Positions 3,823 to 31,268 of a DNA stretch of 32,000 nt are shown here, piece by piece; position 1 is the stretch's first letter; each line of letters opens with the position of its first letter. Below the pieces are notes generated by a model. That model did no database searches, was not told the DNA's origin, and saw only the letters and a program-made list of their open reading frames with translations. Origin of the DNA: Pseudodesulfovibrio mercurii (lineage in GTDB: Bacteria; Desulfobacterota; Desulfovibrionia; Desulfovibrionales; Desulfovibrionaceae); assembly GCF_000189295.2 (NCBI RefSeq), contig NC_016803.1, positions 1,230,001 to 1,262,000 on the forward strand, written 5' to 3'. Both the position numbers and the translations under genes were made by a program.

Positions 3823-4812
3823 ATGAGCGAAAAACAACGAATCCTCTCCGGCATGCGTCCCACCGGCCCCCTGCACCTCGGCCATTACTTCGGCGTCATC
3901 GCCAACTGGCTGAAGATGCAGGAAGAATATGACTGTTATTTCTTTGTGGCCGACTGGCACGCCCTGACCAGCGAATACGCCGACCCGACCCGCATCAAGG
4001 GGTTCATCCCCGGCCTGGTCAAGGATTGGGTGGCCGCCGGACTGGACCCGGAAAAGTGCTCCATCTTCCAGCAGTCCCAGATCAAGGAACACGCCGAGCT
4101 CAACCTGATCCTGTCCATGTACACCCCCCTGGGCTGGCTCGAGCGCTGTCCGACCTTCAAGGACCAGAAGGAGCAGTTGACCCAGAAGGACCTGAACACC
4201 CACGGCTTCCTCGGCTACCCGGTGCTCATGTCCGTGGACATCCTCATGTACAAGCCCCTGGCCGTGCCCGTGGGCAAGGACCAGCTGCCGCACCTGGAGC
4301 TGACCCGCGAGATCGCCCGCCGGTTCAACCATCTCAACAACACCGACCTGTTCCCGGAACCGGCGGACATGCTCACCGAAGCGCCGGTCCTGCCCGGCCT
4401 GGACGGGCGCAAGATGTCCAAGAGCTACGGCAACTCCATCATGCTCTCCGAGCCGCTGGACGAGATCATGCCCAAAGTGCGCGGCATGAAGACCGACGAG
4501 AACCGGCTGCGCAAGTCCGATCCGGGCGACCCCGACATCTGCAACCTCTTCCCCTACCACAAGCTCATGACCGACCCGGCCAAACTCCCCGAGATCGTCA
4601 AGGGGTGCAGGGACGCGTCCTGGGGCTGCGTGGACTGCAAGAAGCTGCTCATGAAATCCCTGGAGGAATTTCTCACGCCCCTGCACGAGCGCCGCGCCGC
4701 CTGCACCGACGAGCGGGTCCGGGAAATCCTTGAGCAGGGCAACGCCAAGGCCCGCGCCTACGCCGTCAAGACCATGGAAGAGGTCCGCAAGGTCCTCAAC
4801 TTCGACTTCTAG
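3823..4812 (+). CDS. trpS: Tryptophan--tRNA ligase
   Basis: ORF 3823..4812. GMRPTGPLHLGHY (HIGH-type) and KMSKS motifs, with the size and overall pattern of a class I TrpRS. Confidence 0.95.
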   Translation: MSEKQRILSGMRPTGPLHLGHYFGVIANWLKMQEEYDCYFFVADWHALTSEYADPTRIKGFIPGLVKDWVAAGLDPEKCSIFQQSQIKEHAELNLILSMYTPLGWLERCPTFKDQKEQLTQKDLNTHGFLGYPVLMSVDILMYKPLAVPVGKDQLPHLELTREIARRFNHLNNTDLFPEPADMLTEAPVLPGLDGRKMSKSYGNSIMLSEPLDEIMPKVRGMKTDENRLRKSDPGDPDICNLFPYHKLMTDPAKLPEIVKGCRDASWGCVDCKKLLMKSLEEFLTPLHERRAACTDERVREILEQGNAKARAYAVKTMEEVRKVLNFDF

Positions 4813-4881
4813 GCGAAAACAGGCTAGGGTGACGCAATCCACCCGGACGAGACCGGGCCAAACCACCATCCAGGAGATTCT

Positions 4882-5310
4882 ATGACTGCGCAGAACGGCA
4901 GCACCGTCAAGGTACACTACACCGGCACCCTCAAGGAGGACGGCAGCCAGTTCGATTCCAGCGAAGGCCGCGAGCCGCTGGAGTTCAAACTGGGCGAAGG
5001 CATGGTCATCGCCGGATTCGAAAAGGCCGTGCTCGGCAAGTCCGCCGGCGACACCGTGACCGTGGAGATCCCGCCCGAAGAGGGCTACGGTTCCCCCAGC
5101 GCGGAGCTGGTCTTCCAGGTCCGCCGCGAACAGCTGCCGCCCACCGTGGAGCTGGAAGAGGGCATCATGCTGGAAATCCGCACCGAGAACGGCCAGCCCG
5201 CCTATGTCCGCGTGACCGAGTTCGACGACGAGCTGGTCACCCTGGACGGCAACCACCCCCTGGCGGGCGAGACCCTGGTGTTTGATATTGAGATCGTAGA
5301 AGTAGCATAA
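4882..5310 (+). CDS. FKBP-type peptidyl-prolyl cis-trans isomerase (SlyD/FkpB-like)
   Basis: ORF 4882..5310 preceded by AGGAGA. VKVHYTGTL...GxxFDSS...FKLGEGMVIAGFEKAV plus a C-terminal DGNHPLAG motif. Confidence 0.85.
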   Translation: MTAQNGSTVKVHYTGTLKEDGSQFDSSEGREPLEFKLGEGMVIAGFEKAVLGKSAGDTVTVEIPPEEGYGSPSAELVFQVRREQLPPTVELEEGIMLEIRTENGQPAYVRVTEFDDELVTLDGNHPLAGETLVFDIEIVEVA

Positions 5311-5330
5311 ATAATTAAACTTCGATTAAC

Positions 5331-5376
5331 TCCCCGCCTCTTGCTGCATCGGCGAGGGGCGGGGTTTCCTTTTTAC
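5331..5376 (+). terminator. Probable intrinsic terminator after the PPIase gene
   Basis: An imperfect GC-rich stem (CTCCCCGCCTC ... GAGGGGCGGGG) followed by TTTCCTTTTT. Confidence 0.45.
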
Positions 5377-5386
5377 GAGGCACGCC

Positions 5387-6562
5387 ATGAGCATATCCGA
5401 CCGTTGCTGCAACATCACCCCGTTCCTGGTCATGGAAATCAACGAAAAGGCCGAGGCCATGGAGCGCGCAGGTCAGTCCGTCATCCGCATGTGCGTGGGC
5501 GAACCCGACTTCGACACGCCCGAATGCGCCAAGAAGGCCGCCTGCCAGGCCCTTGCGGACAACAAGACCCACTACACCCACTCGCTGGGCATCCGCGAAC
5601 TGCGCGAGGCCATCTGCGAGGACTACGCGAAGCGCTACGGCGTGACCCTCGACCCGGACAACATGGTCGTCACCCAGGGCACCAGCCCGGCCATGCTCGT
5701 GCTCTTCTCCACCATCCTCGAACAGGGCGACAAGGTCATCACCTCGGACCCCTGCTACGCCTGCTACGACAACTTCATCACCTTTGCCGGGGCCGCGCCC
5801 GTCAAGGTCCCGGTCTTCGAGGACGACGGCTTCCAGTACCGCGTGTCCGCCATCCGCAAGGCCCTCGACCAGAACGACCGGATCAAGGCCATCCTGATCA
5901 ACTCTCCGGCCAACCCCACCGGGACCCTGCTGTCCGAGGAGCGGCTCAAGGCCATCGCCGAGATCGCCGAGGAGCACGACCTGTGGGTCATCTCCGACGA
6001 GATCTACCACGGCCTGGTCTACGAGGGAGACGCCCACTCCATCCTCGAATACACGGACCGCGCCTTTGTCTTCAACGGCTTCTCCAAGCTCTACGCCATG
6101 ACCGGCTGGCGGCTCGGCTACCTCATCGCCCCGCCCCACTTCATGCGCACCCTGCGCAACCTCTGCCAGAACTTCTTCATCTCGGCCAACACCATGGCCC
6201 AATGGGGCGGGCTGGCCGCCCTCAAGGAGGCCGGGCCGGATGTGGAGCGCATGAAGGCCACCTACAACAAGCGGCGCGTCTACATGCTCGAACGGCTCAA
6301 GGACATGGGGCTGCCCGTCAAGCACGAGCCCACCGGCGCCTTCTACGTGCTCGTGAACATGCGCCCTCAAGCCGCCAGGTTCGACGGCTCCTCCCTGGCC
6401 CTGGCCTACGACATCCTCGACAAGGCCCACATCGCCGTCACCCCCGGCATCGACTTCGGCCAGGGCGCCGAGGGCTACATCCGCTTCTCCTACGCGACGT
6501 CCATGGCTAACATTGAGGAAGGCATGAATCGGCTGGAACAGTATTTACAAGACTTCAAGTAG
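5387..6562 (+). CDS. Pyridoxal-phosphate-dependent aminotransferase, class I (aspartate/aromatic type)
   Basis: ORF 5387..6562. NSPANPTG and the SFSKLYAMTGWRLGY PLP-lysine motif. Confidence 0.9.
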   Translation: MSISDRCCNITPFLVMEINEKAEAMERAGQSVIRMCVGEPDFDTPECAKKAACQALADNKTHYTHSLGIRELREAICEDYAKRYGVTLDPDNMVVTQGTSPAMLVLFSTILEQGDKVITSDPCYACYDNFITFAGAAPVKVPVFEDDGFQYRVSAIRKALDQNDRIKAILINSPANPTGTLLSEERLKAIAEIAEEHDLWVISDEIYHGLVYEGDAHSILEYTDRAFVFNGFSKLYAMTGWRLGYLIAPPHFMRTLRNLCQNFFISANTMAQWGGLAALKEAGPDVERMKATYNKRRVYMLERLKDMGLPVKHEPTGAFYVLVNMRPQAARFDGSSLALAYDILDKAHIAVTPGIDFGQGAEGYIRFSYATSMANIEEGMNRLEQYLQDFK

Positions 6563-6586
6563 CCTCAAGAATCTGATCAATAAAAA

Positions 6587-6615
6587 GGGAGCATGACAAC
6601 ATGCTCCCTTTTTTT
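6587..6615 (+). terminator. Rho-independent terminator
   Basis: GGGAGCATG (6587-6595), loop ACAA, CATGCTCCC (6600-6608), then T7. Confidence 0.85.
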
Positions 6616-6649
6616 ACGCCTCATAGATTCTCCAACGCCCTCCCTCTTT

Positions 6650-6826
6650 GGAGCGAATCGGGTGCGCAGCACCCGACAGCGGCTCTCCGCACTCGCACCA
6701 GGCTTTCGAGAGTGGGTCAGCTGTGCATTTTCTTCCGGCCGCGACAACCGCAGCGTAGCCGTCTACGTGAGGATTGGCGCGGCCGGAAAAAATGTGCAGA
6801 TGGCCCGCTATCGAAAGCCGCCCCCC
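6650..6826 (+). repeat. Copy A of a ~177-nt structured intergenic repeat (candidate ncRNA or MITE-like element)
   Basis: Aligns by hand to the reverse complement of 30902-31078 with 6 mismatches over ~177 nt. It contains a 7-bp hairpin (6659-6675) and a 40-bp interrupted hairpin (6701-6743 pairing with 6778-6819), with an apical mini-hairpin at 6754-6767. Confidence 0.85.
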
Positions 6827-6842
6827 GCGTTCGCGTCCCTCC

Positions 6843-7457
6843 TCAAACCCGGATGTCCAGCCCCTTGTACGGGGCAGCGCCGGCCCCCACCACGATGCCG
6901 CCCGCATCAAAGAGGGATTGGGTATCCATGTTGGTGGAATACCACCAGGCCATGGCGTCGGTGGACAGGGGCCGGTTCATGTCCCGCTCGGACAGGCGGT
7001 TTTTGGCTGTGGCGGCGAGCTTGCCGAACTGGAGGGTGCGGCCGAGCTGTTCGACCTTGTCGGGGTTGGCCGCGAAATAGGCGTTGATCATGTCCTTGTC
7101 GGGATGATCGCCGACCACGGTGGCCGCGCCCGCCGGGTCGTAGGAGAGGCGGAACACGGTGGCGGTGTCCACGCCCAGGGCCGCGAGATCGGCCTTGACC
7201 TCGTCGTTCCAGGTTTCGAGCAGTTCGGCGTGGCGGGTCTCGACGTCGCCGAAGGTCAGCTGCCCGGTGGTGTCGGGCACGGCGTCGGCCAGAAGGTCGC
7301 GGAGATAGCCGCGCATGACCGAACCCGAGGCCGGGGACTCGTCCCGACGGGTTTTTGACTGTTCCGGGCCCAGGGGAAATTCGCTGTCCGGGGCGGTCTT
7401 CCTCGGGCGGCGATACGTGTACCCTTGTACAGCCTGTTCAATAGGTTGCGTGGCCAT
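6843..7457 (-). CDS. Hypothetical protein (204 aa), no recognisable domain
   Basis: ORF 6843..7457 is the only long frame here that is not a shadow of another gene. It has host-like composition. No motifs recognised. Confidence 0.6.
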   Translation of the reverse strand: MATQPIEQAVQGYTYRRPRKTAPDSEFPLGPEQSKTRRDESPASGSVMRGYLRDLLADAVPDTTGQLTFGDVETRHAELLETWNDEVKADLAALGVDTATVFRLSYDPAGAATVVGDHPDKDMINAYFAANPDKVEQLGRTLQFGKLAATAKNRLSERDMNRPLSTDAMAWWYSTNMDTQSLFDAGGIVVGAGAAPYKGLDIRV

Positions 7458-30117: not shown

Positions 30118-30181
30118 TCGCACGCTATTGCACAGCCTGCGGGAGGAGACAAAAGTAAATGGCAACAGCACCGTCGGAAAT

Positions 30182-30214
30182 CAAAGGCCGTCGTTCAGAC
30201 GGCCTTTTCTTTTT
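30182..30214 (+). terminator. Second strong rho-independent terminator in the argC-nitroreductase spacer
   Basis: AAAGGCCGTC, loop GTTCA, GACGGCCTTT, followed by TCTTTTTT. Confidence 0.75.
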
Positions 30215-30278
30215 TCCGGCAGTGGTTATATTGGTGGGAGATATTTTCACCCCGACCGACAATCCGGAGGATATACAT

Positions 30279-30890
30279 ATGGATTTCAACGACATCCTTG
30301 AACGGCGCAGAGCCATCAACTTCTTCGATCCCTCCCAGGACGTGCCCGACGACCTGCTGCGCACCGTGCTGGCCGAGGCGGGCAAGGCCCCGTCGAGCTT
30401 CAATCTCCAGCCGTGGAAGGTCAAGGTCGTCCGCGACCCGGAACGCAAGGCCGCCCTGCGCGCCCTGGCATTCGACCAGGCCAAGGTGACCGAGGCCCCG
30501 GTGGTGCTCATCGTCCTGGCCGATCAAGACGGCTGGAAGGAAGGCAACCCCACCTTCGAAGGCCACTTCAAGCACAACATGAAGCCGGAGCAGCGCGATT
30601 ACCTGGTCAACTCCGCCAAGGCCCTGTACGGAGGCTCCCCGGACGCCTCCCTGGCCTTCGCCACCAAGAACGCCGGGCTGTTCGCCATGTCCTTCATGTA
30701 CGCGGCCTGCGCCCATGGCCTGGACACCCACCCCATGGACGGCTTCGACCGCGATGCGGTGCGCAAGGAGTTCAATATCCCGGACAACTACTGGCTGGCC
30801 ATGCTCATCGCCGTGGGCCACCGCACCCCTGATTTAGTCGTCCACCCCAAGGCCTGGCGCCAATCCGTGGATGAGATGATTTTGAAGTAG
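30279..30890 (+). CDS. Nitroreductase family protein
   Basis: ORF 30159..30890 trimmed to ATG 30279, preceded by GGAGGA. ILERRRAINFFD, APSSFNLQPW, and a typical ~200 aa length. Confidence 0.85.
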   Translation: MDFNDILERRRAINFFDPSQDVPDDLLRTVLAEAGKAPSSFNLQPWKVKVVRDPERKAALRALAFDQAKVTEAPVVLIVLADQDGWKEGNPTFEGHFKHNMKPEQRDYLVNSAKALYGGSPDASLAFATKNAGLFAMSFMYAACAHGLDTHPMDGFDRDAVRKEFNIPDNYWLAMLIAVGHRTPDLVVHPKAWRQSVDEMILK

Positions 30891-30901
30891 GCGTTTGGAC
30901 G

Positions 30902-31078
30902 GGGAGCGGCTTCCGATAGCGGGCCATCTGCACATTTTTTCCGGCCGCGCCAATCCTCACGTAGACGGCTACGCTGCGGTTGTCGCGGCCGGAAGAAAAT
31001 GCACAGCTGACCCACTCTCGAAAGCCTTGTGCCAGCGCGGAGAGCCGCTGTCGGGTGCTGCGCACCCGAATCGCTCCA
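30902..31078 (-). repeat. Copy B of the ~177-nt structured intergenic repeat (inverted relative to copy A)
   Basis: The reverse complement aligns to 6650-6826 with 6 mismatches (hand alignment). Confidence 0.85.
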
Positions 31079-31094
31079 GAAAAATTGAAGAAGG

Positions 31095-31133
31095 AAAGGC
31101 CTTCGACTCAACACCGAGTCGAAGGCCTTTTTT
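31095..31133. terminator. Strong bidirectional intrinsic terminator
   Basis: AAAGGCCTTCGACTC (31095-31109), loop AACACC, GAGTCGAAGGCCTTT (31116-31130), then TTT. Confidence 0.85.
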
Positions 31134-31195
31134 ATGTGCTTGCGCCCCGCGAAGCGGATAGGAAAAGTTTAGGAAGGGAGAGGGGATGGGGGTCC

Positions 31196-31251
31196 GGGGG
31201 AAGGGGAGAGGGAAAGCCCTTTTCCAAAGGGTTTCCCTCTCCCCTTCCCCC
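31196..31251. repeat. Long polypurine/polypyrimidine hairpin (about 26 bp)
   Basis: GGGGGAAGGGGAGAGGGAAAGCCCTTT, loop TCC, AAAGGGTTTCCCTCTCCCCTTCCCCC, with one bulged G. It lies 18 nt downstream of the csaA stop on the minus strand. Confidence 0.7.
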
Positions 31252-31268
31252 GGCCGCCGGAGGCATTC

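Follow-up and report, generated by a model that had tools for sequence, protein, structure and literature searches.

An undescribed family of modular, non-coding dispersed repeats in Pseudodesulfovibrio whose fold is preserved on one strand

Two copies of a repeat at convergent gene ends

The window (the whole 32,000-nt stretch of Pseudodesulfovibrio mercurii DNA analysed here) contains two inverted copies of a 179-nt sequence that are 24 kb apart and 97% identical: copy A at 6649-6827 on the plus strand and copy B at 30900-31078, which is placed on the minus strand because the two intervals are complementary to each other (Table 1). Most of the six differences between the copies fall in the 5´ module or at the stem base, and a search of the window with a covariance model for the family returned these two copies and no more. 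The terminator upstream of copy A (6582-6613) is shared by the convergent aminotransferase and 204-aa genes and is kept in P. hydrargyri and P. thermohalotolerans, whose orthologous loci are without the element. A contig from a short-read assembly that corresponds to positions 4703-6687 of the window (Logan SRR3926152, L001) stops 39 nt inside copy A, a typical assembly break at a multicopy repeat.

Table 1. Positions of the repeat copies, their modules and the adjoining features in the window
Feature	Position	Strand	Description	Remarks
Native bidirectional intrinsic terminator	6582..6613	.	A5, 9-bp stem, T7; 35 nt 5´ of copy A	Perfect 14-nt inverted repeat
Copy A	6649..6826	+	Modules A and B, without R2 or T modules	Covariance-model score 202 bits sense, 70 bits antisense
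Module A of copy A	6649..6700	+	Helix P1 (6651-6654 / 6682-6685) around hairpin 6658-6676, then linker	Consensus fold
Module B of copy A	6701..6819	+	~45-bp hairpin; conserved apical internal loop ACCGCAG / UGAGGAU; mini-hairpin 6753-6768	
Convergent gene at copy A	6843..7457	-	204 aa, Pseudodesulfovibrio-specific hypothetical protein	Stop ~20 nt from element 3´ end
Convergent gene at copy B	30159..30890	+	Nitroreductase family	Stop 15 nt from element 3´ end
Copy B	30900..31078	-	Module A 31027-31078, module B 30908-31026	Covariance-model score 204.6 bits
T module	31095..31133	+	Hairpin AAAGGCCTTCGACTC / GAGTCGAAGGCCTTT, then TTTTTT	16 nt from copy B 5´ end
R2 repeat	31144..31266	-	ATGCCTCCGGCGGCC, near-perfect G/A-rich hairpin (arms 31189-31221 / 31226-31258), ...TAAACTTTTCCTATCCGCTTCGCGGGG	

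The element consists of a 50-nt 5´ module (module A) followed by a 120-nt hairpin (module B), and the two often lie inside a ~366-nt mosaic with the order R2-T-A-B. The preliminary description had reported a 177-nt repeat; the two copies are real, but the unit repeated at copy B is longer, a 366-nt mosaic that recurs as one block (30900-31266, aligning as a single unit to at least 15 loci). The mosaic is laid out as the stop codon of a gene Y (or the terminator of Y), R2, T, module A, module B and the stop codon of a convergent gene X, and takes up the interval between the stop codons of convergent genes. The T module in the window (GGCCTTCGACTC...GAGTCGAAGGCC, with T6 on the plus strand) is a canonical terminator for the plus-strand nitroreductase gene. 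Homologues of T, of the form GGCCYYYGACTC-N6-GAGTCRRRGGCC with compensatory changes, were found in 284 kb only at 17-23 nt from copies of the element, which therefore often travels with its own bidirectional terminator. R2 represents a second repeat family (ATGCCTCCGGCGGCC, a G/A-rich hairpin, then ...AAACTTTTTGTCGCCGCTTCGCGGGG). A stop codon or the T-run of a terminator usually lies 0-10 nt before the start of its members; the one in the window begins 2 nt past the stop codon of a tRNA-binding-domain gene, and 21 of 30 R2 matches lie directly upstream of the element on the same strand.

In 32 of the 39 hairpin-bearing copies of the family, the element 3´ end is followed within 100 nt by the end of a convergent gene (median of the 32, ~6 nt), and a convergent stop codon lies within 23 nt in 24 of the 39, the usual spacing being 0-25 nt. 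On the 5´ side, a pyrimidine-rich spacer is nearly always present, and a terminator hairpin lies 10-35 nt from the element 5´ end (10-19 nt in at least half of the copies). The far side of this hairpin carries an uninterrupted A-run, and the hairpin is therefore a canonical terminator serving the convergent gene encoded on the opposite strand. At copy A and at the copy in P. methanolicus, the 5´ hairpin is the native terminator of the locus; at many other copies it is a homologue of T. Given the polarity of the terminator and the abutting convergent stop codon, the strand that is surely transcribed is the antisense strand: the one transcript that certainly exists is the mRNA of the convergent gene, which runs to the terminator and carries the antisense version of the element. 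No promoter was detected upstream of or within the element by a sigma-70 scan or by inspection by eye for sigma-54, and the 5´ flank is not conserved save for the terminator and the pyrimidine tract. At two loci (L008 and L044), the element lies antisense between two co-oriented genes.

Module B is not itself an intrinsic terminator, as it has no U-run, being followed by GCCGC and variable sequence in the sense direction and by UUGUGC in the antisense direction; termination is instead the part of two separate hairpins, at 6582-6613 and 31095-31133. The genes that the copies abut are ordinary ones without functional relation (including nitroreductase, TyrRS, amidase, serine dehydratase, DctM, Kup, HydF, histidine kinase and glutamine synthetase III), and the absence of a common function among them speaks against a gene-specific regulator. 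A role in supplying stop codons, or a preference for one of them, was also discarded: TAG ends 13 of the 24 closely abutted genes, which is no enrichment because TAG makes up 52% of background stops. The long high-GC3 ORFs across the family loci end in 74 TAG, 40 TAA and 28 TGA codons; TAG as the commonest stop codon is unusual for a GC-rich bacterium.

A dispersed family with a fold preserved on one strand

Searches with nhmmer and the covariance model identified ~40 further copies, which come from P. karagichevae, 'D. caledoniensis' lm2024, P. methanolicus and several metagenomes; one complete genome has at least 10. When one genome per species was scanned for exact 18-mers, two records proved to contain true copies, Pseudodesulfovibrio karagichevae 9FUS and 'Desulfovibrio caledoniensis' lm2024 (nine loci each), and all matches outside these two records were due to chance. 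A gapped pattern scan of metagenomes contributed 16 additional loci with 73-93% identity. The ends of the element are sharp, with TGGAGCGATTCGGGTG at the 5´ end and CTATCGGAAGCCGC at the 3´ end. The unit begins TGGAGCGATTCGG and finishes CTATCGGAAGCCGC, sequences that are not inverted repeats of each other; the palindrome is confined to the internal module B.

The preliminary description had not recognised any standard RNA family, and our searches agree. Rfam 15 gave no match at the gathering threshold across the whole window, and relaxing the cutoff to E ≤ 10 or E ≤ 1 brought up, for the window and seven diverged copies, only sub-threshold matches to generic hairpins (miRNA precursors) or of a terminator-like kind. 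BLAST against plasmid and phage collections gave no match to the element either, leaving it without a known counterpart in Rfam, plasmids or phages. Four matches in a scan of viral contigs were all due to chance, and a literature search found no description of this repeat family. A protein-coding element was rejected, as the indels are not multiples of three, the substitutions track helix covariation and the ORFs are high-GC artefacts. The window copies are members of an undescribed family of non-coding, modular, dispersed repeats in Pseudodesulfovibrio.

Some copies are arranged in compound structures. On one 219-kb metagenome contig, L042:1803-2311 and L045:557-1117 each contain four to five tandem units of module A plus spacer, with periods of ~83 and 97 nt, followed by a single hairpin module. 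At L063:12148-12464 and L072:867-1100, head-to-head pairs of elements surround one perfectly palindromic terminator, each element facing a stop codon.

Copy A has a folding energy of -109.1 kcal/mol on its plus strand, compared with -71.0 +/- 4.7 kcal/mol for dinucleotide shuffles (z = -8.2; none of 200 shuffles equal), while the minus strand folds more weakly (-99.5 kcal/mol, z = -5.5). The minimum-energy fold contains the long helix predicted earlier (6701-6743 with 6778-6819), as well as the 5´ hairpin (6659-6675) and the apical mini-hairpin. The four wobble pairs listed in the preliminary description (6713/6807, 6717/6803, 6724/6796 and 6725/6795) are indeed T/G on the plus strand, and a fifth G-U pair (6753/6768) is found in the apical hairpin. 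As also described, the A to G change in copy B at the equivalent of 6814 converts U-A to U-G and keeps the pairing; across the family (alignment columns 82/196) this pair is UG in 18 copies, UA in two and GC in three, making U-G the commonest form.

Structure statistics for the family were obtained from 23 full-length copies, for which RNAalifold predicted 60 pairs, with compensatory double changes in 19 of them. Standard pairing was observed in 97.8% of helix cells, compared with 90.7% in shuffles (0 of 500 as high), and dropped to 36-45% in a control in which the 3´ partners were slid by 1-3 columns. The covariation score was 0.200, against 0.075 in shuffles, and again none of 500 shuffles reached the observed value. 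The further copies thus retain the helix far more often than they break it, the outcome on which the claim of a selected helix had been made to depend. The non-Watson-Crick cells, read on the strand that is plus in copy A (the sense strand), comprise 156 G-U, 8 A-C (which would read as G-U on the opposite strand) and 23 others; 18 pairs have at least one G-U and seven have an A-C. Because of this imbalance, one and the same structure is 97.8% canonical in the sense strand and 87.0% canonical in the antisense strand, and the mean folding advantage of the sense strand is 15.6 kcal/mol. The argument from strand-specific G-U pairs, made initially from two copies, thereby holds across the family, and the strand it named is strongly supported: the fold preserved by evolution is that of one strand only. 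DNA energy parameters prefer the sense strand as well, as RNA parameters do, so that energy does not separate RNA from single-stranded DNA, and the folded molecule could be single-stranded DNA instead of RNA. Helix preservation, strand asymmetry and the absence of a known match all favour the original proposal of a structured RNA or an ERIC/MITE-like element over random intergenic DNA.

The hairpin of module A covaries (CGGGTG/CACCCG, CGGAAAG/CTATCCG and CGAGGGGG/CCCCCTCG), and the middle of the long helix is swapped wholesale among subfamilies (TTCCGGCCGCG/CGCGGCCGGAA, CGAGGGTCCGCC/GGCGGGCCCTCG and CCAGGGGGC/GCCCCCTGG). Near-invariant parts are the base of the helix, a tandem UG/GU step and the apical loop ACCGCAGCGUA[hairpin]UACGUGAGGAU. 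An invariant inverted pair, CGTAG...CTACG, sits at the apex, at the inner 3´ end of each arm, the arms themselves not being self-palindromic. One subfamily with a 55-nt apical insertion gains an extra arm and shows a larger strand difference, folding at -133 kcal/mol in the sense strand against -107 kcal/mol in the antisense strand. In one copy (L034:1837-2014), the apical ~35 nt are flipped compared with all other copies, consistent with recombination between the arms.

Distribution of the family and possible explanations

The intergenic site between the aminotransferase and 204-aa genes differs among species. The element is present there in the window and inverted in P. methanolicus, with its 3´ end abutting the aminotransferase stop codon. 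P. hydrargyri, P. thermohalotolerans and P. indicus are without it; in these three species R2 occurs solo, two inverted copies occupying the site instead (intergenic regions of L080-L082). This comparison of filled and empty sites is one between species at a single orthologous site. On the P. indicus-like contig (L082:3913-5044), the aminotransferase orthologue appears as two overlapping ORFs of 121 and 270 aa, maybe a frameshift or a pseudogene.

Sequence variants are also distributed across loci and species. In two copies (L011:1057-1318 and L079:3653-3913), the long helix is split at its base by an 82-nt insertion made up of small hairpins; the two, at different loci in P. karagichevae and P. 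methanolicus, share it at 92% identity. The 55-nt apical insertion is found in five copies from two species. One P. karagichevae copy (L027:3353-3484) is decayed, with five A-C and eight other mismatches; the copies that follow the homologous gene at L008 and L044 are canonical and belong to different subfamilies. Identity among copies is 85-97%, whether they are compared within or between three genomes, and the single homologous coding stretch between two of these genomes is just 67% identical. The family is probably a non-autonomous mobile, or at least duplicative, element, though the conservation of the unpaired motifs could equally mean a host function under purifying selection. Neutral insertion leaves the strict orientation toward the neighbouring gene unexplained.

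We also looked for a partner enzyme and for marks of insertion. Within 2.5 kb, no copy has a gene for a transposase, a reverse transcriptase or a Y1-HUH enzyme. A search of 573 kb of loci with an approximate IS200 TnpA query gave no match resembling a Y1 transposase, and no multicopy neighbour protein adjoins the copies. Comparison by eye of the flanks of ~30 copies revealed no consistent target-site duplication, the one TTAA/TTAA case (L020) appearing coincidental, and no fixed insertion target was found in the flanks. The orientations of the 10 copies in the complete genome (+,-,+,-,-,-,+,+,+,-) show no replichore bias, with the origin assumed to be near position 0.

The explanation we favour, with a confidence that stands about halfway, is that the element is a non-autonomous, modular, dispersed structured repeat that has been propagated or duplicated beside 3´-end terminators and whose fold is needed on one strand of a single-stranded intermediate. 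The fold of the sense strand, as RNA or single-stranded DNA, would be the target recognised by a putative trans-acting propagation machinery. Because this fold would be what the machinery recognises, selection would act on propagating lineages rather than on every resident copy, and such selection would explain together why compensatory changes run through whole subfamilies, why G-U pairs are asymmetric and why an old copy has decayed. A resident copy would, as a side effect, place a weaker antisense hairpin, often along with a terminator, in the 3´ UTR of the abutting gene.

A structured RNA from the sense strand (plus for copy A) was proposed in the preliminary description; on this explanation the family would be a set of structured small RNAs or cis-antisense RNAs, which would act through conserved loops that bind, for example, a protein or, alternatively, by pairing with 3´ UTRs bearing complementary sequence. 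We regard this as unlikely. Covariation and G-U asymmetry do fall on the sense strand, and the tandem 5´-UG-3´/3´-GU-5´ motif, the invariant unpaired motifs ACCGCAGCGUA...UACGUGAGGAU, the insertion of extra arms with the core left undisturbed, as in structured RNAs, and the high sequence conservation across species would all be in line with such RNAs. Transcription in that direction is poorly accommodated by the setting, however: there is no promoter-like sequence upstream, where the flank is unconserved except for the terminator and the pyrimidine tract; a terminator hairpin lies directly upstream in the sense direction; and the element, having no terminator of its own, would read antisense into the next gene. 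The antisense placement between co-oriented genes at L008 and L044, the equal preference of DNA parameters for the same strand and the decay of one copy also count against a small RNA.

The strand that is surely transcribed could be the functional one, with the element serving as a cis-acting 3´ UTR cassette that stabilises or terminates the mRNA of the convergent gene, an explanation that seems to us just as doubtful as that of small RNAs. The order along the mRNA would be stop codon, reverse-complement hairpin, reverse-complement module A and T terminator, and the A-C mismatches of the antisense hairpin would prevent excess helix stability or cutting by RNase III. The placement fits well, with a stop codon 0-25 nt from the hairpin in most copies, an A5-7 run of the T hairpin on the sense strand that becomes a U-run for the convergent gene, T found only beside the element in 284 kb and a mosaic that fills the convergent intergenic space between stop codons. 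The mismatches themselves do not fit: any type would serve to weaken the hairpin, yet the non-Watson-Crick cells are 156 G-U, 8 A-C and 23 others, and compensatory change maintains the helices. The host genes are functionally unrelated, and the sister species without the element at the same site have no obvious replacement other than R2.

Less probable still is a terminator-seeking non-autonomous mobile element that would spread via a folded single-stranded intermediate of the sense strand or, alternatively, a sense RNA that would act as a multicopy antisense regulator of all mRNAs with a complementary 3´ UTR. The intermediate of such an element may be RNA that is copied back into DNA, or single-stranded DNA handled by an enzyme not yet linked to the family. 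The element may be a bacterial counterpart of SINEs or a hitch-hiker on targeting like that of class C introns and, by bringing its own bidirectional terminator, may reshape convergent genes at their 3´ ends. A chance palindrome or a segmental duplication without a family, which two copies in a 32-kb window might by themselves suggest, has a negligible probability and was rejected in view of the ~40 copies in several species, a fold with z = -8.2 and covariation that exceeds all controls.

Significance and comparison with known systems

Small dispersed repeats belong to the least understood components of bacterial genomes and, to our knowledge, almost nothing has been described for the sulfate-reducing Desulfovibrionaceae. 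The present family is unusually informative because three signals are legible from sequence alone: strong covariation, a near-absolute strand asymmetry of G-U pairs and a strict placement rule (terminator hairpin, spacer, element, convergent stop codon). These signals are not all in agreement, in that the strand with the selected fold is antisense to the sole transcript certain to be made. Either a putative enzyme propagates the repeats through a single-stranded RNA or DNA intermediate, or the repeats serve as antisense or 3´ UTR modules; the interest of the family would be higher if a single-stranded intermediate or a partner enzyme proved true. The family also yields a covariance model that can be used for annotating Pseudodesulfovibrio genomes, and accounts for assembly breaks.

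Some systems with folded single strands share features with the element. The retron msr-msd region resembles it in having small 5´ stem-loops followed by one long hairpin, over ~170-250 nt, but the element belongs to a multicopy family and has no a1/a2 inverted repeats conserved across copies. A retron non-coding RNA was rejected, as the downstream neighbour is a convergent housekeeping gene and not a reverse transcriptase, and a GGAGCG/CGCTCC closure is present in copy B only. Integron attC sites are also imperfect palindromes of ~120 nt right after a stop codon, with the folded strand antisense to the upstream ORF and mid-helix structure conserved above sequence. Unlike them, the element lacks RYYYAAC and GTTRRRY core sites by inspection. 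There are no AAC...GTT cores at the hairpin base, and the copies occur singly, dispersed among housekeeping genes and facing either way, with no cassette arrays, so an attC site was rejected. Class C group II introns insert shortly downstream of an intrinsic terminator, in the sense of the terminator; a hairpin and a 10-35-nt T/C-rich spacer are found in this position 5´ of most copies of the element. Sharp ends, the absence of target duplication and a fold selected on the sense strand are further similarities. The element differs in having no domain V/VI, no GUGYG 5´ end and no ORF, and a group II intron was rejected, given no Intron_gpII or group-II-D1D4 matches at E ≤ 10 and a length of 177 nt that is far too short.

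Among small mobile repeats, PATEs derived from IS200/IS605 are recognised by subterminal hairpins that resemble each other at the two ends, by a 4-5-nt target that stays fixed 5´ of the left end and by an orientation tied to the direction of replication. The element was rejected as a PATE, as its 5´ hairpin is unrelated to the base of the long hairpin, its 5´ flanks are pyrimidine-rich but not fixed and there is no strand bias. The likeness to MITEs raised in the preliminary description stands insofar as this is a dispersed palindromic repeat, but a classical MITE was rejected for want of terminal inverted repeats (the ends are TGGAGCGATTCGG and CTATCGGAAGCCGC) and of a target-site duplication. 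ERIC/IRU, YPAL/RU-2 and Correia (NEMIS) elements are closer: at 120-170 nt, they too form a long imperfect hairpin, lie intergenically in 3´ UTRs and have subfamilies with internal insertions, and, because G-U pairs occur on one strand only, they and the element form orientation-dependent RNA hairpins. They differ in their terminal inverted repeats and TA target duplication, neither of which the element has, and share no sequence similarity with it.

REPINs are REP doublets that form hairpins and are mobilised by RAYT Y1-HUH transposases. Like REP/BIME and REPIN sequences, the element is a dispersed extragenic repeat at gene 3´ ends, often between convergent genes, with hairpins of ~100-120 nt whose outer arms are conserved and whose variable middle shows compensatory changes. 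Both form mosaics with other short motifs, cause no target duplication and contain an inverted GTAG...CTAC pair, here at the apex. In contrast to REP and REPIN sequences, the arms of the element are not REP-type palindromes, GTAG is at the inner end of the arm and not at the 5´ end of a REP, there is an asymmetric 50-nt 5´ module, copies number in the tens and not the hundreds, and no RAYT gene lies beside any copy. On the best reading of these likenesses and differences, the element would be an interspersed structured repeat comparable to REPIN, BIME and ERIC.
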